Numbered from the stretch's first letter, positions 1,986 through 25,062 are shown. The stretch: 27,280 nucleotides of DNA from a virus (IMGVR_UViG_3300030035_000142:1-27280), one strand, 5' to 3'. Notes: a model not told the origin generated them from the sequence alone. Program-made: numbers and translations.

Positions 1986-4130
1986 TTAAGCTGGTCCGTA
2001 GGGGTAGAAGGTGCCTCCGAAGACGGGTATCTGGATCATGCCCAGCGCGTACTGCGTCACCTGGTCGTCTTCGATGTCGGCTATCAGAAAGGAATAGTCG
2101 AAGTTGACACCCGGTTTTTCTTGGGCAAGCATGATAGGATAAACGGTCCCCGGTATGCCAGATACGTCCGCGCCCGTCAGTTTGGCGTCCTGGTCGAAGT
2201 GGACGTTGAGCCATACTTCCCCGCTGGTTTGGGGGATAGTCACCCACGAGGAACCGGAACCGCCCCCCTGCGGATATTTGCCGAGCAGCGAGCCGTTCAG
2301 ATAGAGCGCGCCGGGCTTCATCTGCGCCCCGGTGATGGCTCCCTCCGTATCTTTCTGCAAGCGCACCTGAAAGCCGTATTCCGGCGCGGGCGTGGATTCT
2401 CCCGTGGATTTGGTGATGTGCTGGCTGATGGTGGGGGATTCCGGCTTGGGGTCAAAGCCGTATTCCGTCGATTCCGGCGCCCCCTGCATGTTTTCCAGCG
2501 TGGAAGAAATGTTAGAAACGGAATTAATTTCATTGAGCGAAAGCAAATCTTCAACCCCAAGTTGATTTGGCGCGCCGTAGGACAGGGAAATCGCGTTGGT
2601 CTGCAGGTCGCGCGAAACGGTTTGAATCATGGTGTTGATGTTCTGCCACTCTGGGTTGCCTCCCAGCAGCGAGACGCGCCGGCCCATGTATTGCCGCGTC
2701 TGCGCTTCTCCCAGCGCGACAAAGGAAATAGAGCCGTCCCAGGGCAATTCCTGCATGGATTCCCATACCGTTTTGGCAATGTCCCCATAGGGCACTCCTT
2801 CCGACGGTTCCGGCGATTCCCCTTCTTCCGGGCCGTTGGAGGGCTGTTCCCCGTTGTAGATGCCGTCAATGGGGTAGCTCGCGTAGGGGCGGTCCATGGT
2901 GACCAGATCCACCGAGAATTCTTCCCAGAAGCAGGGCACGCCTTGCAGGGTCCCCACATTCTTGAATTTCTCCCTCCACTTGGCCGGGGCGCTTTCCGGG
3001 ATGGCAAGACGCTGCTTGACGGTGGCGTTGCACCATTGCGGGCGGATGGATTTGGTATGAATTTGCCCGTCCGTCAGTTCATAGCCTGTGGCGGCGGTGT
3101 TGTAGCCTCGCGGCTTGTCTTCCTCCGTTCCGTCCCAGGGCTTCCCGGTGATGGTCGGATCCTGGTCATAGACGGCGATTGCTCCTACATCTTTCATCCA
3201 CGGGAAATGATGTTTCCAGAAACTGTTGATCATGTCGTTCTGGTCAATCCTGGTCCCCGTCACTTTCATGCGCTGGTAAGACAGGCTGCCGGCCCTGGTG
3301 CCCTGCACCGGCTGCGGATCTTCTACCGGCTCCCCCGTAGAACTGTATTTGGAGTAGTAGAAGTCTACTGACGTTCGGTAAACAATGGAGTGCGGCAAGG
3401 TCGGGTCCCCGTCTTCCGGGTATTTGGACAGGTAGGAGACGCGGTAGCCGTTGCTGCCGGTGGTTTCCGCGACGATAGCCACGCAGGGCGGTACGAGGTC
3501 GCCCCGGGGGACCAGGGAAACATCCATAGACTTGACCGTCGCCGTCGGCTGCAAGGGAAGCGCGATGGGCGTCAGGGCGTCATAGTCCGTGATGATGAGC
3601 TTGGGGCGCGCGCCGCTGTAGTCGTAGTAGGAAACCATGCGGGGCGACCAGCGGCGGATGGATTGAAGGAGGCTGCTCAGCGTATCGCAGGAGGCGTTCC
3701 ACGGAATCAGCATCTTGTCGTCGCTGATACGCAGCTCGTAGTCCGCCGGGTGGTGTTTGGCGAGGTTCAGCACCCGGGAGAGTGCGGAGGCAATGCTTAT
3801 CTTGGGAATGATGCCGCCCCCTCCGCTGACTTTATTCCACATGGAAAAGACCGGCTTCCATTCGGAATCCAGCGCAAAGCAGTTGTCCAGCCAATACCAG
3901 GGATCGGAAAAGACGATTTTCCACGCACGGGAAGAGCCGCTGTAGGTCTTTTCGATGCTGGAAACGAGGCCGGAAAGAATGGTGTTCCCGTTTTGGGAGA
4001 TGGAGACAGTATCGAACTGTTGGAAGGGTAAGACCTCCCCCAGCGTTCGCACGGGATAAACCGCGGTGATGGCGGAGGAGGAAAAGCTTTGCTGGTCGTG
4101 GGTCAGGCTCGACGGCTTGAGGCCCAGCAA
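1986..4130 (-). CDS. Large distal tail protein (714 aa from TTG; possible AGG start at 4157)
   Basis: Long ORF directly downstream of the tape-measure region, with no recognisable enzymatic motif. The function call rests on position and size. The first canonical start is TTG 4130. The frame is open back to TAA 4181-4179 with an in-frame AGG at 4157-4155. Confidence 0.55.
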   Translation of the reverse strand: MLGLKPSSLTHDQQSFSSSAITAVYPVRTLGEVLPFQQFDTVSISQNGNTILSGLVSSIEKTYSGSSRAWKIVFSDPWYWLDNCFALDSEWKPVFSMWNKVSGGGGIIPKISIASALSRVLNLAKHHPADYELRISDDKMLIPWNASCDTLSSLLQSIRRWSPRMVSYYDYSGARPKLIITDYDALTPIALPLQPTATVKSMDVSLVPRGDLVPPCVAIVAETTGSNGYRVSYLSKYPEDGDPTLPHSIVYRTSVDFYYSKYSSTGEPVEDPQPVQGTRAGSLSYQRMKVTGTRIDQNDMINSFWKHHFPWMKDVGAIAVYDQDPTITGKPWDGTEEDKPRGYNTAATGYELTDGQIHTKSIRPQWCNATVKQRLAIPESAPAKWREKFKNVGTLQGVPCFWEEFSVDLVTMDRPYASYPIDGIYNGEQPSNGPEEGESPEPSEGVPYGDIAKTVWESMQELPWDGSISFVALGEAQTRQYMGRRVSLLGGNPEWQNINTMIQTVSRDLQTNAISLSYGAPNQLGVEDLLSLNEINSVSNISSTLENMQGAPESTEYGFDPKPESPTISQHITKSTGESTPAPEYGFQVRLQKDTEGAITGAQMKPGALYLNGSLLGKYPQGGGSGSSWVTIPQTSGEVWLNVHFDQDAKLTGADVSGIPGTVYPIMLAQEKPGVNFDYSFLIADIEDDQVTQYALGMIQIPVFGGTFYPYGPA

Positions 4131-4235
4131 GTCATTGATGGTGATGTCGTGGTTCCTGCTGCTTGTAAAATGGTTATGTTATGGCTTGATGTTACCGTAT
4201 CTTGCCTGGTTCGGCAATGCGTTTACCTGTCCTAG

Positions 4236-4676: not shown

Positions 4677-6524
4677 TCAATGCTTTCTTCTTCTTAAGCC
4701 CTCTATATTGTTTTTAGCTTGTTCTAAGTCTTTTTTCATTTGATCCAAACCGTTTTTTAGATTTTTTAGTTCTCCTGATTGAATGTTAATCAGTAATAGA
4801 GCTTCTTTCATGTTTCCGGAAAGTCCGTTCAATATAGATTGATTAGTAATGCCCTGTTGTCTTAAGGCGTCTCTAAACGCTATTCCAATTTGTTCATATT
4901 CTCGAGAATCTATTACTCCATCGGAAGCGGCTTTCTTCACCTGTCCACGTATAGCTTCAGATGCAGCTCTAACAAGTGCCTTTTGTTGGTCAGTGGCAGA
5001 TTTTCCAGCCTCCACTATAAACCTATCTACAGCCTCTGAAAAATACTCATTATTCTTTTTAAGTTCCTCTGTTTTCTTATCTATATCTTTTTTTCGCCCC
5101 TTAATTTCATTCTCGGCATCTTCTCTTTGTCTTTCTTCTCTAATGGATTTTCTCTCTTGCGCTTGAGCGGTCCTCCCTCGTTGTTCATCAACTGCCGCTT
5201 CCGATTCATTTTTCTTTTTTATATTAGAAAAGTTTCTCGTTGCCTTTTCTTCTTCATTTATAGCTTCTATTAGAGATTTTTCCGCCTCTTCATATTCTTT
5301 TTCAAGAGTTTCTATAGTTTTTGCATAAGATGCATAGGCATTACTATATCCACCTTCGCCAGAAGTTCCATTACCTAAAGAGAATCCGCTATCTTCAAGG
5401 GCAATATCACTCTTCTCTATGGCTTCTTCTGTGTTAAATATTTTATCTCTTCTATCTTCTGCGTTGATATAACCATATTTATCAAGCAAGGATGAAATTC
5501 TTCTATCAGATATATTTTTACCGCCAACAAATTGAGATACTGCATCATAAATATTTTTATCGCTAACTTGTTTATACCTAATAGCCCCTAAATTTACTTC
5601 TTTATCCCTTAAAGATATTAAATAATCGTATAAGTCATTTCTCAATGAATTAGTCTGTTCTTCTACAGAAACTTCTGCAGCTCGTCTCTCTTCCAGGGTC
5701 ATTATATCATCATTAATAGATGCGTTTTGCAAGGCGGCCTTAGCTTCTCTTTGTCTTCGTGCTGCATCTATTCTTTTATTTACTGCATCCGATACATCCA
5801 AACTTGCTGATTCTTCTATTTCTCCTCTTCTCCTTGCACGACTATCTAATTCAATTCCTTCCAACAAACGTGCTTTTCTTCGTTCTGCATCTGATCCTTC
5901 TCCTAATAGTCCATTTGCAAAATCTTCTTCTACCTTTAATCGGGCAATTTCTGCTTCATCGTCTTTGATTCCTGATTCTAAAGAAATCAATTCTTTACGA
6001 TAATCCAGAGAATATTTTAAGGCTTCTGATTCCAGCTTTCGATAATCAGCTATTTTCTTTGCACTATCTAAAGCTTCTCTTAAAATTTGCTCGTTTTGAT
6101 TTTGCCGCCATGTCTCTTCAACCTCTGCTTTTAATTTTCTAAATGCTTCTGCTTCCTCTTCAATCGCCTTAGCAAGCTCTTTGGATTTCGCTTCCGTGTT
6201 CCCCATCCAATCGTAAAGCTTCGCCCCGGCCAGAACGGCAAGCGACATCGCGCCGGCCAGACCTGCGCCGCCTCCGAAGCCCATCACCAGCCCCGGAATA
6301 TTGTTCATGATGCCCCGGATGCCGTACTGCAAGTCATCGAAGAAGTAGGCAGCCTGCAAGGCCCCCTGCCCCATGTTCTTCACGCTCCGGGTTGCCTGCT
6401 GGCTGTCTTTATCCAGCTGCTCCGTAGACTTGTTCAGGGAGTCAATTTTCTGTTTCGCTTCTTCCACGCCTTTTCCGTCCAGCGTGGACTTGAGCTTGAT
6501 TTCGATTTCTTTCTTGGTGGCCAT
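4677..6524 (-). CDS. Tape measure protein (compositionally chimeric)
   Basis: 615 aa. Gly-rich hydrophobic segment (GLVMGFGGGAGLAGAMSLAVLAGA) followed by a long K/E-rich coiled coil. It sits directly after a small chaperone-like ORF. The first ~110 codons are GC-rich and the rest is AT-rich. Confidence 0.7.
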   Translation of the reverse strand: MATKKEIEIKLKSTLDGKGVEEAKQKIDSLNKSTEQLDKDSQQATRSVKNMGQGALQAAYFFDDLQYGIRGIMNNIPGLVMGFGGGAGLAGAMSLAVLAGAKLYDWMGNTEAKSKELAKAIEEEAEAFRKLKAEVEETWRQNQNEQILREALDSAKKIADYRKLESEALKYSLDYRKELISLESGIKDDEAEIARLKVEEDFANGLLGEGSDAERRKARLLEGIELDSRARRRGEIEESASLDVSDAVNKRIDAARRQREAKAALQNASINDDIMTLEERRAAEVSVEEQTNSLRNDLYDYLISLRDKEVNLGAIRYKQVSDKNIYDAVSQFVGGKNISDRRISSLLDKYGYINAEDRRDKIFNTEEAIEKSDIALEDSGFSLGNGTSGEGGYSNAYASYAKTIETLEKEYEEAEKSLIEAINEEEKATRNFSNIKKKNESEAAVDEQRGRTAQAQERKSIREERQREDAENEIKGRKKDIDKKTEELKKNNEYFSEAVDRFIVEAGKSATDQQKALVRAASEAIRGQVKKAASDGVIDSREYEQIGIAFRDALRQQGITNQSILNGLSGNMKEALLLINIQSGELKNLKNGLDQMKKDLEQAKNNIEGLRRRKH

Positions 6525-6841: not shown

Positions 6842-8356
6842 TTAAGATGGGTATTCGGTGGAAGTGTAGCGGATGACGAGGGATAATCCGAACGTACGTC
6901 CGGGCGCCGTGGCTGCGGCGGGATAGGACTCGTCTCCGAGACCGTCAAATGACTGGGGGCTTTCCAGCATGGCATGCTGCTCATAGATGCCGTTCTGGTT
7001 TTCCACGACCAGCTGCCAGTCCGAGCGGATTTCCACGCCGGGAGAAAACGTCCATTTCACGTTTCCGCCCTCTCCGGTGGAAACCGCCTCGCTGCTGGTC
7101 GCTAGAAGAGAGGCAGACCCGTTTTCCACCCGGTAAAGCGTTAACGTGCCGGAATTGGAGCTGGTGGGGTTCGTCGTGATGATTTCCTGCAGCGTCAGTC
7201 CCTTTCCTTCGGGGTTGCCTTCCGGGAAGTCCGGATAAACGTCCGAGGGAATAAACCTCCATGAGGAATAACTCATCGGATTATCCGAGTATTCCCCTCC
7301 GGGCGGGGGAAGCTGATGATTTCGGGTGACCAGTCCTGCCCTCAATACGCGGATTGTCTGTTTTAAACCGGAATCCGCCTGTGTCGCGGAAACGACGACG
7401 GAGCCGGCCCCTCCTTCATTGGGCGCCGCGGTTAACGTGAAGGACCCGTTATTTCCGTTCGTGATATCGGAGATGACAACGGAAGAGCTGGGAGAATTGG
7501 GCGTCCAGTCAACGCTGACTGCCCCCGGGTCATAATAGGAAGTCACCTGGACCTGGTAGCTTCCGCCAGTAACGGGAACCTGTACCTGGGTTGGAGAAAG
7601 GCTGAATGAGAAAGTAGGAAGCGGCTGACGAAATTCAACCTCAACAGCCTGCCCGGTTCCGTCCTGAATGACCTGGAGCGACATGGTCCTGTCCTCGTCT
7701 CCTTCATTGGCGGAGACTGCCACCTTGAATGATCCGTTGTTCCCGTTGACCACATCGGAGACGGTCAACCCTTCGGAGACTTCGGCTATCTGCCACCCCT
7801 GCCCGACCGGACCCGGGGTAAACGAAGATTCCACGTTCACGGTATATTCACCCCCCTGGACGGGCACGTCAAAAGAAGCGGGTGTCACGGCAAAAACCCA
7901 GTTGGAATTGTCTGGTGTCCTGTCGGTGACGGTCATGGTCAGCGTGACCAGCAGGCACAGATAGCCGTCCTCTGGAGACGGAGGCGGGACGAAGTTTTCG
8001 GTTTCAAACTGGTAGCCGGTGATGACGGCGGCAAACCGCCATTGCGGCTGTTCGGCGAACTGCAGGTAGAGATAGCCGTTCTGGTTGCTGGCCAGCCACA
8101 GAGCCAGATTCTCCTGATAGGCAGCCATATCCTGAAAATCGACGAACCAGCGGTAAAACGCGATGGTGCGCTGCTCCACGGCACTCCCAAGCCCCTGCGC
8201 GAACGCCCTGGGGCCGTCCACCAGCGACGTTTCGAATGCCTCCATGGAACCGCCGAAGCGGGGCGGCTCCGGCGTATCGTCCCAGAGGTTGAGCAGCTGG
8301 ATCTGGTTGCCGGCGGCGGAAACGTAGCGGGCTGCGTAGGGGGCCTGGTAGGTCAT
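6842..8356 (-). CDS. Tail-associated protein with two tandem BACON/Ig-like beta-sandwich repeats
   Basis: 504 aa with an ATG start 6 nt after the amidase stop. Two ~90-aa repeats share the pattern ...P..v.VP..GG.Y.V.V.S...PG.....W........v.SD..NGNNGSF............ It occupies the slot usually held by the major tail protein (upstream of chaperone + TMP). Confidence 0.6.
   Translation of the reverse strand: MTYQAPYAARYVSAAGNQIQLLNLWDDTPEPPRFGGSMEAFETSLVDGPRAFAQGLGSAVEQRTIAFYRWFVDFQDMAAYQENLALWLASNQNGYLYLQFAEQPQWRFAAVITGYQFETENFVPPPSPEDGYLCLLVTLTMTVTDRTPDNSNWVFAVTPASFDVPVQGGEYTVNVESSFTPGPVGQGWQIAEVSEGLTVSDVVNGNNGSFKVAVSANEGDEDRTMSLQVIQDGTGQAVEVEFRQPLPTFSFSLSPTQVQVPVTGGSYQVQVTSYYDPGAVSVDWTPNSPSSSVVISDITNGNNGSFTLTAAPNEGGAGSVVVSATQADSGLKQTIRVLRAGLVTRNHQLPPPGGEYSDNPMSYSSWRFIPSDVYPDFPEGNPEGKGLTLQEIITTNPTSSNSGTLTLYRVENGSASLLATSSEAVSTGEGGNVKWTFSPGVEIRSDWQLVVENQNGIYEQHAMLESPQSFDGLGDESYPAAATAPGRTFGLSLVIRYTSTEYPS
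7340..7897 (-). repeat. Tandem duplicated Ig/BACON-like domain coding repeat (2 x ~90 codons)
   Basis: Repeat 1 runs FAVTPASFDVPVQGGEYTVNVESS...VVNGNNGSFKVAVSANEGDEDRTMSLQV. Repeat 2 runs FSLSPTQVQVPVTGGSYQVQVTSY...ITNGNNGSFTLTAAPNEGGAGSVVVSAT. Confidence 0.6.
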
Positions 8357-8954: not shown

Positions 8955-10118
8955 TTAATTAAACCGTTGATGGACAAAGAGCTTTTCAATCGTTTTTTTT
9001 GCGTTATTATTTGCCGCAAAGTGGCACGTTTTCGCTTTCTCCCATATGGGAACGAAATCAGAAGGAGCTTTGTATTCTGAAATGAATACCGGAAAATCTC
9101 TCGTCCGGCACCACTCCCAAAAGCGATCATGGTTAAAAAGTCCGGACTTATATCTTTCCGTCCCCTCATAAGGAGGGTCGGCATAAACCACACTACCTTC
9201 CGGAATTGTTATTTCAGTATAATCTTTCCCGCTAATTGTTAATTTCTTATCCAAATAGACATCGCTTTCCAGGCTTTCCAATCTTTGCAGACGTTCCAAG
9301 CTTTCCAGGCTTTCCAGGCTTTCCAATCTTTCCAGGCGTTCCAGGCTTTGCAGATGTTGACCGTAATAATCAACGGGGTGCAAGGTTGGCAAAATCTCAC
9401 GCAGCTTTTCAAACTCTTCCCGTGTGGGGAATGCCCATTGGCTGGATCCAAAATAATGACCCGCCATTTGAGACCCCAAATGGCGGTTTACCTCCGCTTG
9501 AGTTTTCCCAGACGCTTTCAGCGCAGCGCGCAGCTCACCTCTGAGCCATTCTTCAATATTGTCAATCTGGTCCAAAATAGAAGACCTTTGTTCCTTCCTC
9601 CTTTTCAATTCAGCCCGTGCATCCCTTAAGCCCTGAATGAATTTTTTAAACCAGGCCAGACGGTCCTCTCTGTTTTCGGACATGATCATACGGAGCGCCG
9701 CCAACTTTACTGGCTCAAGGTCTGCGTTCCATAAATAACATTCACCGTGATTTCCAAATGACCATAAGAGGGCGACCGCCGCATCATGATCTTTCACGCG
9801 GTTGAACTCATCCCGATCAACAGCCCTCCGGTCACAATCTGTCAAACGCCCTGTTGCCGCACGAAAAAATAAATCAGGAAATTGCCGCTGAATATCATTG
9901 GCGATGACCCTGGGCCACTTCCCCGACCATAATGCCGCATGAGTCATGGCACACCCACCCGCGAAAAGATCAACAAATACCGGCCCTTCTGGTAAAATAT
10001 TCACCAGATCTGCGGCGATCTTATTTTTTGAGCCCATATAAGGCAATCCGAAACTGGCAGGTTTTTTTCTCGGAAGAGCGCATGGGGAGCTTAACCGTCT
10101 GGGATAAGAAGCAATCAC
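8955..10118 (-). CDS. N6-adenine DNA methyltransferase (Dam/D12-class-like) with an internal LES/LER repeat
   Basis: N-terminal LPYMGSKNKIA..., AdoMet motif VDLFAGGCAM and catalytic VYADPPY. The start is uncertain: GTG 10118 overlaps the upstream gene, and the ATG at codon 28 is an alternative. The gene is visibly more AT-rich than its flanks. Confidence 0.8.
   Translation of the reverse strand: MIASYPRRLSSPCALPRKKPASFGLPYMGSKNKIAADLVNILPEGPVFVDLFAGGCAMTHAALWSGKWPRVIANDIQRQFPDLFFRAATGRLTDCDRRAVDRDEFNRVKDHDAAVALLWSFGNHGECYLWNADLEPVKLAALRMIMSENREDRLAWFKKFIQGLRDARAELKRRKEQRSSILDQIDNIEEWLRGELRAALKASGKTQAEVNRHLGSQMAGHYFGSSQWAFPTREEFEKLREILPTLHPVDYYGQHLQSLERLERLESLESLESLERLQRLESLESDVYLDKKLTISGKDYTEITIPEGSVVYADPPYEGTERYKSGLFNHDRFWEWCRTRDFPVFISEYKAPSDFVPIWEKAKTCHFAANNNAKKTIEKLFVHQRFN
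9264..9353 (-). repeat. In-frame imperfect 9-nt tandem repeat array inside the Dam-like methyltransferase gene
   Basis: The + strand shows repeated GGCTTTCCA / AGCTTTCCA / ATCTTTCCA units. They encode LQSLERLERLESLESLESLERLQRLESLES. Confidence 0.85.
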
Positions 10119-10662: not shown

Positions 10663-11067
10663 TTATTTAATAGTGAAATGCTTGAAAAACGCCACCGCGG
10701 CGGGGGCGGTAATGACGAACTCCGGGTAGTCGCGGTCCGTAAAAATCCTGCGCCCGCCCTGTGGATTGACGGCTTCCACGGCCAGATACACCGCCTCCAC
10801 TCCCACAATGGGGTCATCCTCATTGACAGGATCCGGGTAATACCAATCCTGTGTTGCCCACACCTGGACGGCCTGCCAATCCTCACCCAATCCCACCAGC
10901 GCGGCCACTACGGCGGCCATGGCCGGGGTCTGGTTCGCCGGAATCTCGTCCTGCGTATAGCGGTCTATGCGGGTGTACCCTTCCTCGTCCTGGTAAATGG
11001 CCGCCAGGCCGAATTCATCCCATTGACCGGGTTTCGGGAACTGTATTTGTATCTCGGAATTATTCAT
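10663..11067 (-). CDS. Hypothetical acidic protein downstream of the fibre gene (fibre-assembly candidate by position only)
   Basis: 134-aa ORF. Its ATG overlaps the fibre stop (ATGA). No motif recognised. Confidence 0.45.
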
Positions 11068-13004
11068 GATTCTATCGGCACGTTAATATCTTCAAAAGCG
11101 GCGGTTGCCTCGGATTCAACGGCATTCGTTCCTATTGCGTTCAACCCGTAAAAGAGGGGGTTCACATTGCCCGGCTGGTAGTAGGCATATTCTCCGGGCC
11201 CCGCATAAACGGAAGCCGTGCCGCTGGTGGTGTTGATCACATCCGTCACCCACCTGGAAATGCCGACGCCGGTCTCAAAATTGGAGACGCCCCGGCAGGT
11301 GGCGATCTTGAACAGGTTGTTGGTCTGTGCCCCCGTGACCAGCAGCCAGAGGCCTCCCAGGTTTTCATAAACGCTGCTGTTGGCAACCGTCTGCTGCTGG
11401 TAAATAATCTTGCACACCGTCCACGGGACGGGCTCGTTTTGCGTCGCCGGGATAAAGCTGGTCGTCGTCTTGACCTGCCATCCATCGGCGGACGTCAGCG
11501 CATAAATTTCACGCACGCGCACCGTATAGCCGTTGCGCGCCGTATCGCGCACGTTGTCAAAGGTGATGTCCAGAATCTCCCCGGAATTAAATGCCAGGTC
11601 ATTGCCCGGAATAATCGTGTAGGAGTCGGTGGTAAGGTCTGTCCTGATTGTTTTCGCCCCCCGTCCGATGCCCATCGTTATCTTCGCCGCGGCCGTGGCC
11701 CGCCAGACAAATGAAAAGCCGGCCCAGGAAGAATAATTCCATTGGGAACTGGGGCCTTCAAAAGGGGCCTGAATAGTCGTGTGAGCGCCCGCGGAAATTC
11801 CTATGCGGGCCATCTGGTAGGGAACCGTTTTAGTCACCGTTGCCGTGCCGGTAGTTGTCAGCGTGTCCGTATTCAGGAAAGCCGCCGCCGTATAAGCATT
11901 GGCTGCGCCTCCCATGCCCGCGGCATACAGGCGGTTGACGCCGGATTCATTGGTCGGCGCTCCCACGGCCAGCGGGATGTTGACGCCTCCATTGGCGTTG
12001 ATGGCGCTTGAAAACGTGGATGTCCCCGCGCAGTTGAAGCTGGCGCCCTGGCTGATATTCAGGATTCCGGTCTCTACCATGAATGTCCCTCTCAGCCATC
12101 CGCCCGACCGAAGATCGACCGACTGGTAAAACCGGGTGATCCCGTAAATCTGGTTCAGCGTGCCGGCGCTTCCGCTGCCGTCCGGGTTGTTGACCACCAG
12201 AGGCCCGTTCACGGTAGCTGATTCGGCTGTCAGGGCTCCCCCGATATTCACATCGCCAACGTTGGATGTCAGAGTACCAGGATCTCCCTTTTCCCCTTGC
12301 GGCCCCTGGGGGCCTGCCGGACCTTCCGGCCCCTGGGGGCCCTCCGGGCCTTGAGGCCCCGCCGGTCCTGTATCTCCCTTCGGTCCCTGCTCCCCGGTTT
12401 CGCCCTGCGGCCCGCGTTCCCCGGTTTCGCCGCGTGGACCTTGCGGCCCTTCGGGTCCGGTTTCACCCCGTTCACCCTGCGGGCCTGACGGTCCCTGAGG
12501 ACCAACATCCCCGCGGGGAATCGTGAAATTGAGCAGATAGGATCCTGATTCAGTTCCCTTGACGGCTTCCGCGTTGGCGGGCGTCCCCGGTTCCCCGGTG
12601 GTGACCTGACCCACGGACAGATTAAAATTCTCGGCGTACTTTTTGGCCTGCTCCGCGTACCAGGCGGCGCTGGACGCGTTATCAAGCATGATTTGCACGC
12701 AGCCGCTTCCTTCCGGCAGCTGCACGACGACCGCGCCCGCCACGGCCTGCTGTTCGTCCGGCAAGTCCGGCGTCACCCGGCCCGAAGAAACAAAGCATCC
12801 GTAAAGGAACGGGCTTTCCTCGTTTCCGTCGTCCATGAAGACGTCATAGGACCACATGCCCGCAGGCACCGAAGCCCAGGAAATTACGCCATTGCCCTCG
12901 TCATCGCGTGAAAAGCCGAACTCCGTCACGCCCGTCTTGAGACGGACAGCGCCGCGCAGGGTGACGCCGCTCATATCGACGGGATCGCCCTGAAAATCCA
13001 CCAC
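11064..13004 (-). CDS. Collagen-like repeat tail fibre protein (646 aa from GTG; possible AGG start at 13070)
   Basis: About 26 uninterrupted G-X-Y triplets ([76 protein letters not shown]), flanked by a beta-rich N-domain and a ~400-aa C-terminal domain. Confidence 0.8.
12276..12512 (-). repeat. Collagen triple-helix (G-X-Y)n coding repeat
   Basis: Read directly from the translation of residues ~165-243 of the fibre ORF. Confidence 0.9.
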
Positions 13005-13072
13005 GCGGACGACCAGGGACTGGTTCAGCCCTGTGACGGTCCGGATATCGTATTTACCTGCCTGCTGCCTGG

Positions 13073-13106
13073 AAAAAAAGAGGATGCGGGGGAGCAGCGC
13101 TCCCCC
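13073..13106 (-). terminator. GC hairpin plus T7 run between the tube and fibre genes (weak intrinsic terminator or attenuator)
   Basis: Minus-strand GGGGGAGC-GCT-GCTCCCCC (8-bp perfect stem), then GCATCCTC and TTTTTTT. The 8-nt spacer between the stem and the U-run is atypical. Confidence 0.3.
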
Positions 13107-13118
13107 TGGTGAAACACG

Positions 13119-13730
13119 TCAGGAACCCGGCACCGGCGTCACGTCCTGCACATTGGAAGGCGTGAAATTGTAGTCGCCGCGGTAATCCATTTCGAACTCG
13201 AACTGGGGTGAAGCGATCGCCGTGGTGTGTTCGGGGTCCTGCAGGAGGCGCAAATCTCCGTGCGCCACGCCCGTCAAGTACACCGTCCCCACGTCGTTCT
13301 GATACCAGAAACGGATATGTCCGGAAATTTTATTATCCCCGCCATGGCCGACGGTGGTCGATTCCTCGCCGTTGGCGGGAGCCGCCCCCAGGGCAAACGC
13401 CAGCTGGAAGTATTCGGGCGACATATCCGGCGTGGTGAAAGTCATCCGCTTGCCGGTCGTCGTGTTCTTGCGCTGCTGCCGGTAGCCAAGATTGCCTCCG
13501 TAAAAGCGCGTCACTTCCCCCTCGACCTGCGTGGCAACGGACTGGAACGCGCCCAGCAGCCCGAAACTCACCCAAGGCGCTTCGGGCCCGGCTGTCGGAT
13601 CGGCCGGAGGATTGGCGGGAGGTTCGGGATATTGGCCGGGGCCGGTAACGTAAGAGGCTCCCTCGTCCTCGGTCACCTTGATGCCGTCGGGGAGGAAAAT
13701 AGCCAGAACGCCGGTAATCTGCGGCGTCAC
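13119..13730 (-). CDS. Putative major tail (tube) protein (203 aa from GTG; possible AGG start at 13769)
   Basis: The function call rests on size and position after the head-completion genes. The frame is open back to the upstream gene's TAA. AGG GCT ACT at 13769 would give MATTYDPIFTNRNV... Confidence 0.45.
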   Translation of the reverse strand: MTPQITGVLAIFLPDGIKVTEDEGASYVTGPGQYPEPPANPPADPTAGPEAPWVSFGLLGAFQSVATQVEGEVTRFYGGNLGYRQQRKNTTTGKRMTFTTPDMSPEYFQLAFALGAAPANGEESTTVGHGGDNKISGHIRFWYQNDVGTVYLTGVAHGDLRLLQDPEHTTAIASPQFEFEMDYRGDYNFTPSNVQDVTPVPGS

Positions 13731-13784
13731 GTTGCGGTTGGTAAAGATAGGATCGTATGTAGTAGCCCTGATGCTTGAAAAAAG

Positions 13785-17036: not shown

Positions 17037-17777
17037 TTAATCGGCGGAGGCCGTCGCGTCGATGCGGACGATGGCGCCGGGGTTGGTCAGCTTGGTCAGC
17101 GAGTAGACGCGGTTGGTGACGAGCGTCAAGGCCAGCGTCGGCTTGTATTCGGTGATGACTTCGCGGCGAAGCTGGCCGGAAAGACCGAAGGTTTTGACGG
17201 CGGAGGCGTCGAACTGCGTCGGGGAATCTTCCTTGTACAGGACATAGACTTCGTTTTCCATGATGGTTTTCGCGTCGCCGGAAGCGTCGCGGTACGGCAT
17301 GGAGGCGATGTAAATATCCCGGATGGGCCGGATCAGAGCCATGCGAAGCAGGTCTTCGTTGAACAGGCCGACGCTGTTGAAGGAAACCACCTGGCGCGCG
17401 AGCGTGTTGGAGCGAAGCAGCTGCCACGCGTTGATGCCGAAGACAATCGTGTTCGGCATGTGTCCGGTTGCGGCGTTGATGGACAGGATCGCCTGGTCCA
17501 GATCCGCCAACGGGTTTTTCTGCTGGTTGGCCCAGTCACCCATCCCGGAAGCGGCCGGAAGCTGGCTCATCAGAAGCTTGGCGCGTTCGTATTCGTACGA
17601 CGTCACAAACTGGGATTCGATGAGTTTGTATTCCGCCAGGGTGATGGCCTGCGCCTTTTCCCGGTTGACGCCCAGCAAGGCGTCAGGGATGGGCAGCGTC
17701 AAGCCGTAGCCCTGAAGGGTGTCGGTTTCGTTTCTTCCGCGCAGGACGGTCTGGCGGGGAGGTTCGCCCGGTCCCAC
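17037..17777 (-). CDS. Major capsid protein, lambda gpE-like (coordinates from the first canonical GTG; true N-terminus probably at AGG 17963)
   Basis: PLADLDQAILSINAATGHMPNTIVFGINAWQLLRSN parallels lambda gpE PTDDIEAYALNASGVVNIIVFDPKGWALFRSF. At 246 aa it is too short for this family. The frame is open for 72 more codons upstream, and these read like capsid N-terminus. Confidence 0.75.
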   Translation of the reverse strand: MGPGEPPRQTVLRGRNETDTLQGYGLTLPIPDALLGVNREKAQAITLAEYKLIESQFVTSYEYERAKLLMSQLPAASGMGDWANQQKNPLADLDQAILSINAATGHMPNTIVFGINAWQLLRSNTLARQVVSFNSVGLFNEDLLRMALIRPIRDIYIASMPYRDASGDAKTIMENEVYVLYKEDSPTQFDASAVKTFGLSGQLRREVITEYKPTLALTLVTNRVYSLTKLTNPGAIVRIDATASAD

Positions 17778-17997
17778 CTGGATGGGCTGGACGGTGAAGG
17801 CCGATTCCGTGTCCCAGACCTTGTACTGGAAATTCAGGTCATAGACCGGGACGATCGGAGCGATGCGGCTGATGATGGAGTTCTCTTCTGTGTTCCCGGA
17901 CCCCGCGGAATAGGAGGTCAGGACATCGGTGAACTGAACGGCGGAGCAAAATGGAGTAGCCCTTGTTCTTGGTCTTTCTGTTGGTTGGGGTTAATAG

Positions 17998-18447: not shown

Positions 18448-19569
18448 TTATCGGTTGGCGGAGACGATGAAGCCTTCTTCGGTCGCTTTCTGGTAGGCGT
18501 CATAGCGCTTCATGCCGTCCTTGATCAGTTCGTTCACACGGTTGTTGAATCCTTCAATGGATTCCTTCTTGCGGAACGGATCAGGGGGATTCAGCGTCAC
18601 GCGGCGGTTCAGAGGCGTCCTTTGCGGAAGCTTCTTCTGCTCCGGCTGCTCCTGTTTCTGTGGGGCCGCCTGGCGGTTGAGCGCACGGATAAAGGCGTTC
18701 AGCGCGGCGGGGCTTTCCCGGAGAGAGTTTTTCAGCTCTTCCCGGCGTTCTTCCGTAAATTCCTCGCGTTCTTCCTCGTCCAGCGCGTTTTCGTACGTGC
18801 TGACGGCGTCGTCCACTTCGGCGTTCACGTGGTCTTTCTCGCGCTTTTCCAGCGAGAGCAGTTCATCAAGTCGTCCGAGGATCGCCCTGCTCATATCGTC
18901 GGTGCCGTCAAATTCGACATCCAGCTTGTCAAGCAGGGAATCGAACAGGGCCCGCTGGGCCTTGTCCATTTCCTTGGACGGATATTCTCTATCGTCGTTG
19001 TCCATATTGGTGTTCTGGGTTATTTCCCCCTCTTCGCGGGGCTTTTGTGGTTTGGTGTCGCCCCCGGCCTCGTCGGAGGCGGGGGAAGTCTGTCGGTTGA
19101 CCAGCGGCCGCTTTCCCTTGATGCGGGGTCGGTTGGTCAGGGCAAAGCCGGTCAGGCGCGACGGTCGGTAAACGCCGTCCGTAAAGGTCATGCCTTCGCC
19201 GTATTCCGTAGAAGATTGCGTATATTCTTTGTCCTCGAGCATCTTCAGGCCGCGGGGAGTCCATTCAATGAAGCCGTAGAGTTCCAGCGTACCGGAAGGG
19301 TCTCGGTAGGTGTCCAGCCTCTTGAGCCATCCGAGAGCCCGCGTATCGCGGGAAAGGTCGTGGCTCAGGTGGTCGCCGTCGATGAGCATGCCCGGCCCGT
19401 CAAAGGTGCGGGCGTTGAAGTCGTCCACCATGTCCCGGATCGCCTGCTCGTCGATGCGCAGCACGGCGGGTCCTTCACCGTAGTCGACGTCATGGTCTCC
19501 GCTTTTCTCGATGTGATACCAGCCGTTGGCGGGTCGGGACAGGTCATTGATTTGTTTCGTACTGATCAT
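18448..19569 (-). CDS. Mu gpI-like prohead protease / scaffold fusion
   Basis: The N-domain GDHLSHDLSRDTRALGWLKRLD...LELYGFIEWTPRGLKMLEDKEYTQSSTEY...RLTGFALTNRPRIKG matches the Mu-like prophage I protein pattern. The C-terminal half is an acidic coiled coil (scaffold-like). Confidence 0.7.
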   Translation of the reverse strand: MISTKQINDLSRPANGWYHIEKSGDHDVDYGEGPAVLRIDEQAIRDMVDDFNARTFDGPGMLIDGDHLSHDLSRDTRALGWLKRLDTYRDPSGTLELYGFIEWTPRGLKMLEDKEYTQSSTEYGEGMTFTDGVYRPSRLTGFALTNRPRIKGKRPLVNRQTSPASDEAGGDTKPQKPREEGEITQNTNMDNDDREYPSKEMDKAQRALFDSLLDKLDVEFDGTDDMSRAILGRLDELLSLEKREKDHVNAEVDDAVSTYENALDEEEREEFTEERREELKNSLRESPAALNAFIRALNRQAAPQKQEQPEQKKLPQRTPLNRRVTLNPPDPFRKKESIEGFNNRVNELIKDGMKRYDAYQKATEEGFIVSANR

Positions 19570-20680
19570 CGGTAAATCCTTTCATGAGTCCGGCGTAAAT
19601 CATTTGCTGAAGCTGCTCGTAGGCGTCGGGCGGAATGAGGGAGGCTCCCGACTCCCTGTTGACTGCCGCCGCCGTCGGCACAGGCTCCCTCGTGTCCTCG
19701 ATCGACATGCCGATCTTTTCTTCGATTTCGGTTTTCTCCGGACGGACGCCTCCGTCCGCAAGGGCGGCGATTTCCTCGGCCTTCTGCAATGGCGTCTGGA
19801 CGGTGTCAAAGGTGATGTGGAGGCGGGCCAGCGGTTCGCCGTCTCCCAATATAAGCGGGCTGATGGCGGTGTTGAACGCTTCCGCCACTTTGGAGCAGAC
19901 GGCGGATACCACCGCATTCCAGCTGTCCGTATGGGCGGACCCGGCCAGCGTGCCTGATCCTGATTCGTTCAGGACCGTCAGGGTTCCGGCCATCACAAAA
20001 CGCACCTGGTCCTTGTCGGCCATGTTGATGCGCGAGAGAAAATAGTTTTCGTTGATGTTGGACGCCTTGAGCGGTTCCGCCTTGCAGTCAGGAGGCAGCA
20101 CGATAGAGGCGCCTGATTTAAGCTGTTCGCAGGCCCGTTCCAGCGCGTCCATGACGGCGGGACTCGCGTCCTTGGGGGCGGTGATGATGACCGGGGCGCT
20201 TCCGTAGCGGTCCATGTGGTTGTCCCACGTGATTTTTGCGTGGTTGCGCTCAAAAGAAGCGCGGGCAGCCGGGAACAGGATGGGATACTGGTGTTCCATC
20301 ACGACGAGCGTTTCGTCTTCCACGCTTTCCCCGGTGTCGACGCCGATATAGCACTGTGGGTTGAACTGCCACTCGTTCAACACTCCCGGCCTCACCCAAT
20401 AGCGCTGTGGGATGAATTCAAAGCGGCGGCCCCAGGCGTCCTCAATGTATTGGAGGTGGGCGTAACCGTAGAACATGGCGGAGGCCAGCTGCCCAAAGGC
20501 CTGTTGAAGTCCGGTGACGGAGTGATAGAATTCTTCCAGCGCGTTCTGCTGACGCTGGGCTTCCGGGCTGTCGTCCGCGGCGTCAATCTTCCAGCCCTGC
20601 ATGGAGACGCTTTCAATGAGGCGGGAGTAGAGCATTCCCAGCAGCCCGTCCGAGTAGATGACCTCGTCCCAGATGAGCAT
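19544..20680 (-). CDS. Portal protein, Mu gp29 / DUF935-like (coordinates from the first ATG; true N-terminus probably at AGG 20908)
   Basis: 378 aa from the ATG is short for this family. The conserved block ...ADLQTLIDARNEARRGAFARQ|MLIWDEVIYSDGLLGMLYSRL spans the ATG. The frame is open upstream to within the tRNA gene and has no ATG/GTG/TTG. Confidence 0.8.
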   Translation of the reverse strand: MLIWDEVIYSDGLLGMLYSRLIESVSMQGWKIDAADDSPEAQRQQNALEEFYHSVTGLQQAFGQLASAMFYGYAHLQYIEDAWGRRFEFIPQRYWVRPGVLNEWQFNPQCYIGVDTGESVEDETLVVMEHQYPILFPAARASFERNHAKITWDNHMDRYGSAPVIITAPKDASPAVMDALERACEQLKSGASIVLPPDCKAEPLKASNINENYFLSRINMADKDQVRFVMAGTLTVLNESGSGTLAGSAHTDSWNAVVSAVCSKVAEAFNTAISPLILGDGEPLARLHITFDTVQTPLQKAEEIAALADGGVRPEKTEIEEKIGMSIEDTREPVPTAAAVNRESGASLIPPDAYEQLQQMIYAGLMKGFTDDQYETNQ

Positions 20681-20928
20681 TTGGCGGGCAAAGGCTCCCC
20701 GCCGCGCTTCGTTCCGGGCGTCAATCAGGGTTTGCAGGTCGGCTCCCTGTAACGGATCCCAATATTCGAACCATTGGGGCCTGCCTGGCTTGCGGCTTTG
20801 TTCCGTCAGGGCTCGCCGGGTGAGATCCGTTTCAAGTTCCTTGATTCTGGTCTCCTGTTGGGCGACCAGCTTCGGGGCGTTGAGGATATTTCTTAATGCG
20901 TTAAACCTGCGGCGAAAGAAAAAAATGG

Positions 20929-21002
20929 TGGTTGCAGGGGGGGGAATTGGACCCCCTACTCGGGCACAGGAAACCCGCGTGATAACGTTTCACCACCCTG
21001 CG
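20929..21002 (-). tRNA. tRNA, anticodon CCU (AGG-reading), with an initiator-like acceptor stem and a non-canonical D/T loop
   Basis: Manual cloverleaf: CGCAGGG UG GUGA-AACGUUA-UCAC G CGGGU-UUCCUGU-GCCCG AGUA GGGGG-UCCAAUU-CCCCC CCCUGCA A CCA. All stems pair (one U.G), U33 is present, position 37 is a purine and CCA is encoded. Position 1:72 is a C x A mismatch. Confidence 0.6.
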
Positions 21003-21018
21003 ATTGTTTACATATCGT

Positions 21019-21047
21019 CATATATTGATATATTGATATATTGTCAA
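21019..21047 (-). promoter_or_regulatory. Near-consensus sigma70-type promoter directly upstream of the tRNA
   Basis: The minus strand reads TTGACA (21047-21042), a 17-nt spacer, then TATATG (21024-21019), about 17 nt before tRNA position 1. It starts 2 nt after the terL stop codon. Confidence 0.4.
21021..21044. repeat. 3 x 8-nt tandem repeat TATATTGA / TATATTGA / TATATTGT
   Basis: Read directly from the + strand. It fills the spacer and -10 region of the putative tRNA promoter. Confidence 0.85.
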
Positions 21048-21049
21048 CC

Positions 21050-22357
21050 CTAATATCTCCCGTAAGCGCGTTTTGATGACACGGGCCGGGCGTACCAGGC
21101 TCCCAGCGTCCGGGCCAGTCCGCTGTGCCGGCGCGCGTGCCAGGCCATGACGAGGGCGTCGGCGCGGTCGGGAGAACGGACGCCCCGTTTCGCCATGTCT
21201 TCCTTGCTTTCGATTTTGACGCGGCCGATCGCGTCGGTTTGGAGCCGGGGCGCTACCAGCTGCTCAATCGTGTCCTCGTCAATGTCGAGGATGAGTTCCT
21301 TTTCTTCGATGGCTCGGGCCAGGGCCCGCCACGCCTGGGCGCGGAGGTTGACAAAGGCCTGCGTATCGTCTGCCGGGAAACCGCCCCGGTAGGAGTGCAC
21401 CGGGAAGCCCTCGGCGCGGAAGTCGTCAATGATGGGTAGTCCAAGGCCGTCTCCGTCCGCGTAAATGCGGTCGGCGGGGATGCCGAGTTCGGACGCCCTG
21501 CGGCGGAACCGTCCGCGCGCTCCTACGGTGTCCGGGTCCGACCAGTGGTCGGCGATGAAGAATCGGTTGCCCTGCCCGGCCGCGAAGACGTTTTCGTCGC
21601 CTCCGGCCGCGAAGTCGAAGCCGCCGCAGGTCTCCCCGGTGTCCAGAAAGGGAGGCGGGTTGTTGACCAGATCCATGAGGGCGCGCCGGGGAATGACGGA
21701 CTGACCGTCGAGGTCCGTGAATTCGCCGAGGATGGCGGAGCGGTAGAAGGAGGACTGCTCGCCGTATTCTTTTTTCAGGCGCTCGGCCTTGCCCGGGTCA
21801 TTGATCTCAATGTGGGGGCAATCCTCGTATTTGACGCGGATCTTGTAGTAGAGGGATGAATTTTTGTGGAAGCAGTCGTAGAAGGTGCCGGAATCGGCCC
21901 CAGGTGACGAGGTAATGAACGCGTGGAAGAGCGTGCAGCGGGAAACGGCGGTGAAGATGGAGTCCGGGATGGTTTTAGCCTCGTCGAGGACGTAAAAGAC
22001 GGGGTCCACGTCGGGCGAGATTTTCGGGTGCCATCCTTCCGCGCGGCCGGCGTTGTCGGTCGAGAAGCCCACGGCAAAGCCTCCCTCCGGCGTGCGAATC
22101 TCGGTTTTGTTGAATGTCCAGCCGTCAAAGAAAGGGTTGTCCATGTAGCGGCGGAGCGCGGGAAAGAGCTGCTTTTCCACCTGCATCCACGACGACGACG
22201 TAACCGGCACCTGACCCCGCGGGAAGCAGGTAAGGAAGTACAGGATGGCCGGAGCGATGCAGTTGCTCGTCTTGCCGGATCCGTTGGGAGCAACCAGAGC
22301 CACGCTTTTCCCTCCCAGGGTCAGCTTGCCGAGGGACAACGCCTTGATGGCTTCCAC
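21050..22357 (-). CDS. terL: Terminase large subunit (coordinates from the first canonical GTG; true N-terminus probably at AGG 22423)
   Basis: Walker A VAPNGSGKT, Walker B-like FYVLDEAK and a C-terminal nuclease-type acidic motif (SPDRADALVMA). The typical TerL N-terminal block FFLRHVLRLDPYPWQ lies upstream of the GTG. Confidence 0.9.
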   Translation of the reverse strand: MEAIKALSLGKLTLGGKSVALVAPNGSGKTSNCIAPAILYFLTCFPRGQVPVTSSSWMQVEKQLFPALRRYMDNPFFDGWTFNKTEIRTPEGGFAVGFSTDNAGRAEGWHPKISPDVDPVFYVLDEAKTIPDSIFTAVSRCTLFHAFITSSPGADSGTFYDCFHKNSSLYYKIRVKYEDCPHIEINDPGKAERLKKEYGEQSSFYRSAILGEFTDLDGQSVIPRRALMDLVNNPPPFLDTGETCGGFDFAAGGDENVFAAGQGNRFFIADHWSDPDTVGARGRFRRRASELGIPADRIYADGDGLGLPIIDDFRAEGFPVHSYRGGFPADDTQAFVNLRAQAWRALARAIEEKELILDIDEDTIEQLVAPRLQTDAIGRVKIESKEDMAKRGVRSPDRADALVMAWHARRHSGLARTLGAWYARPVSSKRAYGRY

Positions 22358-22429
22358 CTGCCAGGGATAGGGATCCAGGCGGAGGACATGGCGGAGGAAG
22401 AAGCTGACGGGGAGGCGTGTCCTGGTCTG

Positions 22430-24321: not shown

Positions 24322-25062
24322 CTATTCCCGGGGATGGTAATTGATCTCGCGGTAGGATTTCCAATCACAGGTGATGATGGTGCCGCAAAGGTGGATGCGG
24401 GAAACAATGGCCGGCCCGAGTCGATCTTCAAGGGCGGCGGGGCTGTAGTTGGAGATGATGATGGTCGGTTTGCCGTTCTGGTGCCGATAATCAATGAGCC
24501 TTTCCAGCGCGGCGCCTGCAAAGTCCGTGTCCTTGACCTCGTGATACTCGTCCAGCACCAGAAGATACGGGGCCTTGTATCGCTTCATGACATCGGATTC
24601 CGAGCCGTTGCCGTTAAACGTCTCTCTCAAGTCCATCGTGTAATCATAGGCCTTGGTATAGAGAACTCGCCTCTTTCGCCTGTACATGAGGCGTCCAAGA
24701 AACGTGCTCAATACCGTTTTCCCGGTGCCGTATCGCCCGTTCAGTACAATGATACTCCCAGGCGTCAAAACGAGGCGGTAGGCATCACGCAGGGCTTTCT
24801 TCCATGGTTCCCCGGTTACTTCGTCAAGGCAATCAATAGCTCGGCGGGGAAAACCGCGGTCAATCAGGCCAAGGCGTTCGTATGCCGCTCGGCGTTCTTC
24901 TTCCCGCTGCTTTTCAGCATCCAGCGCTTCCGCTTCCAGCTCTTCAATGCTTCTTCCGTCGTCCTCGGCAAGCAGGGTGATAGATTCCAGGAGGCTTTCA
25001 AGATTAACTTCTTTCAGTCCTCCCTGGGGTTTAATGGGGTCGTCAATCTTTCCAGAGGTCAT
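24322..25062 (-). CDS. DnaC/IstB-like AAA+ helicase loader
   Basis: Walker A LNGRYGTGKT and Walker B YLLVLDEYHE. ATG 25062 is preferred because it limits the overlap with the upstream gene to 20 nt. ATG 25110 is possible. Confidence 0.75.
   Translation of the reverse strand: MTSGKIDDPIKPQGGLKEVNLESLLESITLLAEDDGRSIEELEAEALDAEKQREEERRAAYERLGLIDRGFPRRAIDCLDEVTGEPWKKALRDAYRLVLTPGSIIVLNGRYGTGKTVLSTFLGRLMYRRKRRVLYTKAYDYTMDLRETFNGNGSESDVMKRYKAPYLLVLDEYHEVKDTDFAGAALERLIDYRHQNGKPTIIISNYSPAALEDRLGPAIVSRIHLCGTIITCDWKSYREINYHPRE

Follow-up and report, generated by a model that had tools for sequence, protein, structure and literature searches.

A phage-encoded initiator-type tRNA with anticodon CCU and matching AGG start codons: a candidate system for late-gene translation in an Akkermansia phage and its relatives

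The virus contig IMGVR_UViG_3300030035_000142:1-27280 (27,280 nucleotides (nt); this whole stretch is called the window) represents the greater part of a temperate Akkermansia muciniphila phage, and we describe here a set of its minus-strand late genes that appear to start with AGG, among them the gene for a virion-module protein of 216 amino acids (aa), together with a phage transfer RNA (tRNA) that carries the complementary anticodon, CCU. Upstream of the 216-aa gene, the TAA of a 65-aa gene (13787-13785, minus strand) is followed by CTT TTT TCA AGC ATC (13784-13770), AGG (13769-13767), GCT ACT ACA TAC GAT CCT ATC TTT ACC AAC CGC AAC (13766-13731) and GTG (13730-13728), and a single frame runs uninterrupted from the 65-aa gene stop through the AGG and the GTG to the stop at 13119. 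A preliminary description of 13731-13784, which listed the TAA, the 15 nt after it, AGG GCT ACT and a frame open as far as GTG 13730, proved accurate when the sequence was re-read. An open leader of 18 codons is by itself nothing unusual, and the signal lies in the comparison with relatives; this supports the suggestion, made in the same description, that the protein begins at AGG 13769 (as X-ATTYDPIFTNRNV...), the AGG being invariant in the relatives that bear the tRNA and replaced by ATG in the tRNA-less relative L001.

A survey of the window from stop to stop identified six minus-strand genes, four of them not noticed in the preliminary description, with conserved N-terminal regions that lack a canonical start and have an AGG near the beginning of the open frame, 2-27 codons from it in each gene (Table 1). 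In the gene for the terminase large subunit (TerL), the AGG comes two codons after the small-subunit gene has ended with an in-frame TAA, and a canonical start first appears 22 codons downstream of the AGG. In the portal gene, the AGG lies 21 nt past the CCA end of the tRNA and the first ATG is 76 codons further on, while the capsid frame is open from 17990 and has its first ATG, GTG or TTG (a GTG) at codon 71, which is 62 codons downstream of the AGG. The N-termini of PHROG profiles fall at the AGG, residue 13 of the capsid corresponding to position 14 of phrog_1005 and residue 31 of the portal to position 30 of phrog_113. Gene calls give the 216-aa protein a length of 203 or 185 aa here and the capsid one of 245 aa. 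No evident Shine-Dalgarno sequence was found at any gene of the window.

Table 1. Features of the window. Gene identities are from Pfam and PHROGs profile searches; the first six genes are those with a proposed AGG start.
Feature	Position	Strand	Basis
Terminase large subunit, AGG 22423	21050..22423	-	phrog_2
Mu-type portal protein, AGG 20908	19544..20908	-	PF06074; phrog_113
Major capsid protein, AGG 17963	17037..17963	-	phrog_1005
216-aa virion-module protein ("tube protein" of the preliminary description), AGG 13769	13119..13769	-	homologues; P0005 begins M-ATT...
Collagen-repeat tail-fibre-like protein, AGG 13070	11064..13070	-	Pfam/PHROG searches; ATG in L001
723-aa tail-module protein of unknown family, AGG 4157	1986..4157	-	ATG in L001, AGG in L002
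Phage tRNA, anticodon CCU (reads AGG), proposed initiator	20929..21002	-	ARAGORN; Rfam tRNA, 47.4 bits
Promoter-like element immediately 5' of the tRNA: TTGACA (21047-21042), 17 nt, TATATG, TATATCAA repeats	21003..21047	-	sequence and conservation
Leader as described earlier: 15-nt intergenic spacer (13784-13770), AGG start (13769-13767) and 12 sense codons (13766-13731, ATTYDPIFTNRN)	13731..13784	-	
Intrinsic-terminator-like hairpin GGGGGAGCGCTGCTCCCCC (13106-13088) with T-run (13079-13073), 3' of the 216-aa gene	13073..13106	-	sequence
Tyrosine integrase	1-1188	+	
D12-class N6-adenine methyltransferase with LERLES-type repeat insert	8955-10037	-	
C5-cytosine methylase	26342-27253	-	
DnaC/IstB-like ATPase	24322-25110	-	

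Homologues of the 216-aa protein have all been called with internal GTG starts, at 203 or 185 aa, with the exception of P0005, which begins M-ATTLSPEYANRNV. The contig that encodes P0005, L001, has no tRNA and carries tightly packed, full-length genes; L002-L004 have the tRNA and "truncated" gene calls. At the AGG positions of the window L001 has an exactly aligned ATG (capsid, 216-aa, fibre and 723-aa genes) or TTG (portal), and in TerL an ATG two codons upstream of the AGG position; for at least ten further genes, L001 and the window phage agree in having ATG. Scans of public collections with the tRNA pattern and the capsid protein gave about 100 related loci, mostly human-gut contigs, one being a prophage in an Akkermansia muciniphila metagenome-assembled genome (MAG). 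Many matches in genomes arose by chance and contain no tRNA: the first tRNA pattern gave five of these (L043, L044, L046-L048), and the second gave 120 genome matches, most of which were of this kind. Of eight genome matches to an 18-mer, six were not tRNAs.

Wherever a start position in a tRNA-bearing locus was open to examination it is AGG, with L024 as the sole exception. The metagenome set gives 52 AGG starts for the portal, 52 for the capsid, 48 for TerL, 38+1 for the 216-aa gene and 36 for the fibre, and the co-occurrence of tRNA and AGG is the same in the IMG/VR set. L024 (IMGVR_UViG_3300010163_000397, tRNA at 4935-5008) has AGG at the portal, 216-aa and fibre genes, and ATG at TerL, where every other tRNA-bearing locus has AGG, and at its capsid, a variant of 70% identity; the capsid AGG position is thus ATG in both L001 and L024. 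Because its starts are mixed L024 represents an intermediate state, and it is useful for reconstructing the order of the ATG-to-AGG conversions. The apparent misses in the co-occurrence are two contigs too short to extend to the tRNA, L239 with one extra codon inserted past the AGG, and the rearranged copy L257, which has a truncated tRNA. In L257 (ULRR01030325.1, about 7000-7052) the 3' end of the tRNA, CCCCTGCAACCA, alone remains, the sequence upstream is unrelated and AT-rich with no TerL, and the portal and capsid still have AGG starts; it is probably a rearranged or decaying prophage. That the AGGs as a whole reflect errors of sequencing or assembly, or pseudogenes of a decaying prophage, has nothing in its favour beyond the missing canonical starts themselves, and we give it practically no credence: these AGGs recur across about 100 contigs, which come from independent studies and were built with different assemblers, the open reading frames (ORFs) are intact and under purifying selection, and L257, which is truly decayed, looks different.

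Between the AGG and the first canonical start, the variable sites at codon positions 1, 2 and 3 number 14, 14 and 49 in the capsid, 4, 2 and 15 in TerL, 25, 14 and 66 in the portal, and 5, 2 and 19 in the fibre, and in the 12 codons from AGG to GTG in the 216-aa gene they number 3, 2 and 10, which is the pattern of coding sequence. The AGG itself is never altered among these relatives, not even to AGA or to the CGN arginine codons, and the sequence directly upstream is poorly conserved, with 17-24 distinct contexts per gene (a further count of start contexts gave 21 for TerL, 24 for the portal and 16 for the fibre, the last all C-AGG), and with 22 of 30 sites variable upstream of the AGG of the 216-aa gene. 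The comparison of homologues that had been proposed earlier shows the peptide ATTYDPIF to be kept as protein in all relatives, the codon before it being AGG in about 57 further loci with a readable start of this gene and ATG in L001. The N-terminal peptide ATTYDPIFTNRNV varies by ordinary substitutions, for instance PNTYDPTYSNRNV and DTTYDPTFTNRNV. An AGG start for the capsid, also put forward in the preliminary description, is likewise borne out by the relatives.

These observations bear on a conventional reading of the locus, in which the tRNA is an ordinary elongator tRNA-Arg(CCU) that supplements the reading of a codon rare in the host, translation begins at the canonical codons further downstream (GTG 13730; the GTG at codon 71 of the capsid) and the leaders are untranslated. 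ARAGORN does label the window tRNA as tRNA-Arg, phage tRNAs that compensate for codon usage are common, and gene callers chose the downstream starts in P0001-P0004. However, the leaders evolve as coding sequence and are kept as protein, the homologues and PHROG profiles reach back to the AGG, and a capsid short of 62 N-terminal residues that match its family profile is implausible. Nor is AGG enriched inside the genes: it accounts for 43 of 7130 codons (6.0 per 1000, and 10% of arginine codons), with none in the capsid or the 216-aa gene. A role in codon supplementation is not supported by this usage, and the tRNA does not appear to be needed for elongation. The anatomy of the tRNA, described below, counts further against an elongator.

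The preliminary description had also pointed out that the capsid and the 216-aa gene share AGG GCT ACT. This is so in the window (17963-17955 and 13769-13761, both on the minus strand), where the exact 9-mer AGGGCTACT occurs twice, precisely at these two starts; at up to one mismatch there are 7 matches against 2.8 expected, a number reached in 1 of 100 shuffles. Beyond the AGG, the GCT ACT is identical in the two genes of the window and is not a conserved signal, because the second and third codons vary among relatives, the 216-aa gene starting as AGG CCT AAT, AGG GCA ACT, AGG GAT ACT or AGG TCA ACC, and the capsid in one variant as AGG GCT AAT. The extended motif was thus ruled out as a signal, and its sharing in the window may be coincidental or may reflect a second-codon preference of highly expressed genes. 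A near-cognate start at the in-frame ATC 13772 was ruled out too, since this codon is ACC in several relatives.

The upstream stop, which was described as lying in the same frame 15 nt away, is so placed in the window, where it gives some colour to the idea of read-through of this stop (TAA 13787 here), or of a frameshift, producing fusions to the upstream product. The arrangement is not conserved, however: in L004 stop and AGG are 14 nt apart and out of frame, and other relatives have yet other spacings. The gene ahead of the capsid ends in another frame, a terminator precedes the fibre AGG and a tRNA the portal AGG, and in L001 the genes are separate and ATG-initiated. Read-through of the in-frame TAA was ruled out on spacing and frame, the in-frame stop is incidental, and the broader idea of fusions we regard as having almost no chance of being correct.

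The tRNA, which the preliminary description did not notice, is the only one that ARAGORN and Rfam detect in the window, and lies between TerL and the portal on the same strand as both. Its sequence is CGCAGGG-UG-GUGA-AACGUUA-UCAC-G-CGGGU-UUCCUGU-GCCCG-AGUA-GGGGG-UCCAAUU-CCCCC-CCCUGCA-ACCA, with a C1xA72 mismatch, G2:C71, C3:G70, A73, an encoded CCA, a G:C-rich anticodon stem (CGGGU/GCCCG) and the loop UUCCUGU with G37. The family to which it belongs comprises 21 distinct sequences from 101 loci, every one with C1, A72, ACCA and the anticodon CCT. In the 16 variants collected first the four cloverleaf helices are 100% paired, with compensatory changes at 8 pairs. Positions 1 and 72 are never paired, being CxA in all 21 variants, while the other acceptor pairs covary. 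The determinants of formylation are present as G2:C71 in 15 of the 16 aligned variants (G:U in the other), C3:G70 in all 16, and the ACCA end in 21 of 21, and the anticodon stem CGGGG/CCCCG, which holds G29-31:C39-41, is found in 16 of 21 (two have A29:U41). Most copies have G37. Elongators need a paired 1:72 for EF-Tu, and both the constant mismatch and G37 in place of A37, which would be unusual for an elongator reading ANN codons, speak against the elongator reading; together with the coding character of the leaders, they make it very improbable.

Directly upstream of the tRNA is an element resembling a promoter (Table 1), whose TTGACA is kept in 32 of 33 distinct contexts within a conserved TTGACA-17 nt-TATRTG arrangement, and L001 has TTGACA at the same spot although the tRNA is absent there. 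A scan of the window for the sigma-70 consensus did not call this element, because its second hexamer ends in G. Judged by its sequence and conservation, the element, which runs from TTGACA through the TATATCAA repeats to TATATG in the interval separating the TerL stop from the tRNA, is probably the promoter, and perhaps an operator as well, of a tRNA-portal-capsid transcript. Across relatives the portal AGG follows the tRNA CCA by 12-23 nt; given this and the element upstream, the tRNA seems to be the first gene on the transcript that carries portal and capsid.

The tRNAfMet of E. coli pairs through its position 37 with the base that precedes the start codon in the mRNA (-1; PMC10018350), and a comparable relation is seen here. 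In the Akkermansia phages, whose tRNAs have G37, the base at -1 is C in TerL (21/21), the portal (24/24), the 216-aa gene (19/19), the fibre (16/16) and the 723-aa gene (2/2), and positions -2 to -4 vary while the C is fixed in these five of the six genes. In other lineages (below) whose tRNAs have U37, A stands at -1 in 14 of 15 AGG starts compared to 9 of 16 ATG starts (p=0.037). That the -1 base tracks tRNA position 37 matches the tRNAfMet pairing (PMC10018350) and fits decoding in the P site.

This relation is left unexplained if the AGGs are read by the host tRNAfMet through a mismatch, either as near-cognate starts or by re-initiation after close stops, with the tRNA(CCU) unrelated. Such a reading draws on the stops that lie near the AGG (2 codons upstream at TerL, 5 at the 216-aa gene), and low-level initiation at AGG by tRNAfMet has been documented in E. 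coli (PMC6868393). The same work shows AGG to be a poor start when no matching tRNA is supplied, strongly rejected by IF3 in wild-type cells (PMC6868393), which is hard to square with expression at the level of a capsid protein. No translated ORF stands ahead of the fibre AGG, which follows a terminator, or of the portal AGG, which follows the tRNA. Mismatch reading also leaves unexplained why the AGGs co-occur with an exactly complementary tRNA that is always mismatched at 1:72, and why the arrangement recurs in lineages with strong Shine-Dalgarno sequences. We therefore consider it unlikely, if the least improbable of the alternatives.

The recurrence was found by searching other phages for a canonical initiator acceptor stem with a CCU anticodon, and then for the anticodon arm so identified. 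Unrelated low-GC phages carry a tRNA(CCU) with unpaired 1:72, as C1xA72 in L265/L354 (L354 is a Clostridia MAG) and L393, and as A1xA72 in L389 and in L390/L391 and the isolate Lacrimispora defluvii PI-S10-B5A. The hosts of these Clostridia-type phages use Shine-Dalgarno sequences, and in the phages 15 distinct long ORFs have an AGGAGG-type Shine-Dalgarno 7-9 nt ahead of an AGG, which lies 0-15 codons past the upstream stop and is followed by no canonical start for 15-97 codons. They include genes for the portal, major head, major tail, tail sheath, head-closure and terminase small subunit (TerS) proteins, a class of genes shared with the window, and the N-termini of their PHROG profiles lie within about 3 residues of the AGG. 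The Lacrimispora isolate (L397:459-534, NZ_JAAOXG010000061.1) provides a cultured source of the A1xA72 tRNA(CCU) of the L390/L391 type; the 8 kb examined upstream of its tRNA shows ATG and TTG genes only, the structural genes lying beyond that stretch.

Several further initiator-type tRNAs with uncommon features came to light. A Parcubacteria MAG (L281:41-115, on the 2.6-kb contig JABMPZ010000105.1) has an initiator body that is canonical throughout, GAGA-AGUCUGGUA-UCUC, with CCGGG/CCCGG, C1xA72 and the loop CUCCUAA, giving CCU, and this could be either a real CCU initiator or a single-base error in place of CAU. Among 120 viral matches to the initiator acceptor stem CGCGGGG...CCCCGCAA (C1xA72), 14 have the anticodon GAC in an odd loop, UUGACUU (L095, L099, L101, L105, L127, L135, L174, L177, L188, L189, L196, L204, L206 and L207), and the changes in the anticodon stem between these variants are compensatory. 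The GAC tRNAs might be the sign of another reassigned start, GUC/GUU; searching the available fragments for GTC or GTT starts in two crude ways gave no convincing signal. The viral loci L146, L161 and L193 have initiator-type tRNAs that ARAGORN labels "Glu-CTC", with apparent 8-nt anticodon loops containing CUCAU, which are probably CAU initiators with an expanded loop.

Taken with the co-occurrence and the constraints described above, the features of the tRNA lead us to regard it as very probable that a phage-encoded initiator-type tRNA decodes AGG in the P site and that the starts of six late genes were converted from ATG to AGG, a single-base replacement in each. The broader proposition we hold with good confidence: that phages of at least two phyla of hosts (Verrucomicrobiota, Akkermansia; Bacillota, Clostridia/Lachnospiraceae) encode CCU initiators and have had the starts of packaging and virion genes converted from ATG to AGG, which would constitute a natural orthogonal initiation system and a virus-encoded reassignment of a start codon. 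In the mechanism we propose, the promoter-like element that precedes the tRNA would drive its transcription as the leading part of the portal-capsid transcript, and the tRNA would be aminoacylated, most likely with arginine, and possibly formylated. The 1:72 mismatch would keep it off EF-Tu, and it would be delivered, by IF2, to the ribosomal P site, where CCU would pair with AGG and G37 would probably pair with the conserved C at -1. With AGG decoded by the phage tRNA, translation of the 216-aa protein would begin at 13769 and not at GTG 13730, and the synthesis of key packaging and virion proteins is likely to depend on the phage's own tRNA. The purpose may be to gate late-protein synthesis on the phage tRNA, by analogy with stop-codon recoding, or to make the phage independent of a host initiator tRNA that is open to attack by toxins. 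Feasibility has been demonstrated with engineered E. coli initiator tRNAs, among which the combination of a CCU anticodon with AGG starts outperformed the other non-canonical pairs in every strain examined (bioRxiv 10.64898/2026.04.16.719103).

A number of points weigh against the proposal. The change to CCU should abolish recognition by methionyl-tRNA synthetase (MetRS), and an N-terminal arginine that is not formylated would be destabilising under the bacterial N-end rule. Of the identity elements for arginyl-tRNA synthetase (ArgRS), C35 and U36 are present and favour charging by this enzyme, and A20, which is a major ArgRS determinant in E. coli, is apparently absent, the D-loop AACGGUA (AACGUUA in the window) having U before A21 when numbered by analogy. 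The window D-loop also keeps one G of the usual G18/G19 pair, the D-stem has U11:A24 in all 16 aligned variants instead of the A11:U24 of initiators, and most variants have C55 (T-loop UCCAA; a few have UUCAA), a position of tRNA T-loops that is normally U or pseudouridine. The window tRNA has U31:G39 in place of the third G:C pair of the anticodon stem, G29:C41 and G30:C40 being present, and the U37 lineages are without the three G:C pairs (CCAGC/GCUGG). The capsid has A, not C, at -1. Lastly, L001 is the sole relative found that clearly lacks the tRNA, and close relatives, or copies present in more than one collection, make up many of the approximately 100 loci.

Among known systems, the phage tRNA can be compared with the bacterial tRNAfMet, with which it shares C1xA72, G2:C71, C3:G70, A73 and the encoded CCA, as well as the proposed reading of the first codon in the P site; the consecutive G:C pairs 29-31:39-41 occur in most variants of the Akkermansia phages and are incomplete in the window copy and absent from the U37 lineages. 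Its acceptor stem, CGCAGGG/CCCUGCA, is one compensated pair apart from that of E. coli tRNAfMet, CGCGGGG/CCCCGCA, which runs CGCGGGG.../CCCCGCAACCA. It differs in the anticodon, CCU and not CAU, such that it should not be a substrate of MetRS and should read AGG, and also in U11:A24 (not A11:U24), in G37 (A37 in E. coli), in its unusual D-arm GUGA-AACGGUA-UCAC, in having C55 in most copies, and in being encoded by a virus and serving about 6 of about 25 genes. To our knowledge, all known cellular and phage translation starts with a CAU-anticodon initiator tRNA. Initiators with an altered anticodon have been used in the laboratory since about 1990 to direct translation from other codons, and they now serve as a tool of synthetic biology; the earlier ones reportedly include RajBhandary/Schulman-type mutants such as the amber initiator. 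Like these anticodon mutants, the phage tRNA keeps the initiator elements and has a changed anticodon, so that the complementary non-AUG codon becomes a start that is orthogonal to the host. The very same CCU/AGG pair was the best of an engineered set (bioRxiv 10.64898/2026.04.16.719103). The engineered initiators differ in being laboratory constructs derived from E. coli metY, whereas the proposed phage system is natural, with a diverged tRNA body and matched changes of late-gene starts.

A second kind of comparison is with phage tRNAs that act in elongation. Phage suppressor tRNAs reportedly recode stop codons, for instance TAG or TGA in crAss-like and Lak phages. There too a codon takes on a new meaning through a phage tRNA in a subset of genes, chiefly late or structural ones, whose translation comes to rely on that tRNA, and gene callers are confounded; that recoding takes place in the A site and turns a stop into sense, whereas here a sense codon would become a start in the P site, and the code for elongation is untouched. 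No in-frame stops occur within the ORFs, and the anticodon of the tRNA, unlike that of a suppressor, is not complementary to a stop codon. With phage elongator tRNAs the present tRNA has in common its place in a phage genome and a possible escape from defences that target host tRNAs, initiator-tRNA-cleaving VapC toxins being an example of such a defence; it differs in having no rationale in codon usage and in the 1:72 mismatch, which speaks against use in elongation. A search of the literature, with subscription-only papers outside its scope, found no natural non-CAU initiator tRNA and no phage AGG starts described. The nearest counterparts of a natural system of CCU initiator and AGG starts are the laboratory anticodon-mutant initiators and suppressor-tRNA recoding.

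As for the 216-aa protein itself, searches of Pfam and PHROG found no family and a profile search against the PDB returned noise only, and the AlphaFold model has a mean predicted local distance difference test (pLDDT) score of 35, from a shallow alignment. The hint that it might be a tail-tube protein comes from position alone, the gene lying past the head-completion genes and ahead of a terminator. The terminator-like hairpin after it is kept in L002-L004 with compensatory changes, and the fibre AGG stands just 2 nt past the U-tract of this strong hairpin. The remaining genes of the window (Table 1) fit a temperate phage.

If the proposal is true, it would be a new viral recoding of translation, acting at the start rather than the stop codon, and would offer a ready-made orthogonal initiation pair, the same CCU/AGG having independently emerged as the best among engineered ones. 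The first amino acid of the proteins concerned may then not be methionine, with a bearing on formylation, deformylation and the N-end rule. It would also explain truncated or missing calls of capsid, portal and terminase genes in catalogues of gut phages, for which current gene callers would be systematically broken. For the phages themselves, AGG initiation would suggest a translational lock on late genes or independence from the host initiator, and would be relevant to the control of lysogeny and to anti-phage defence in Akkermansia, an important gut commensal.

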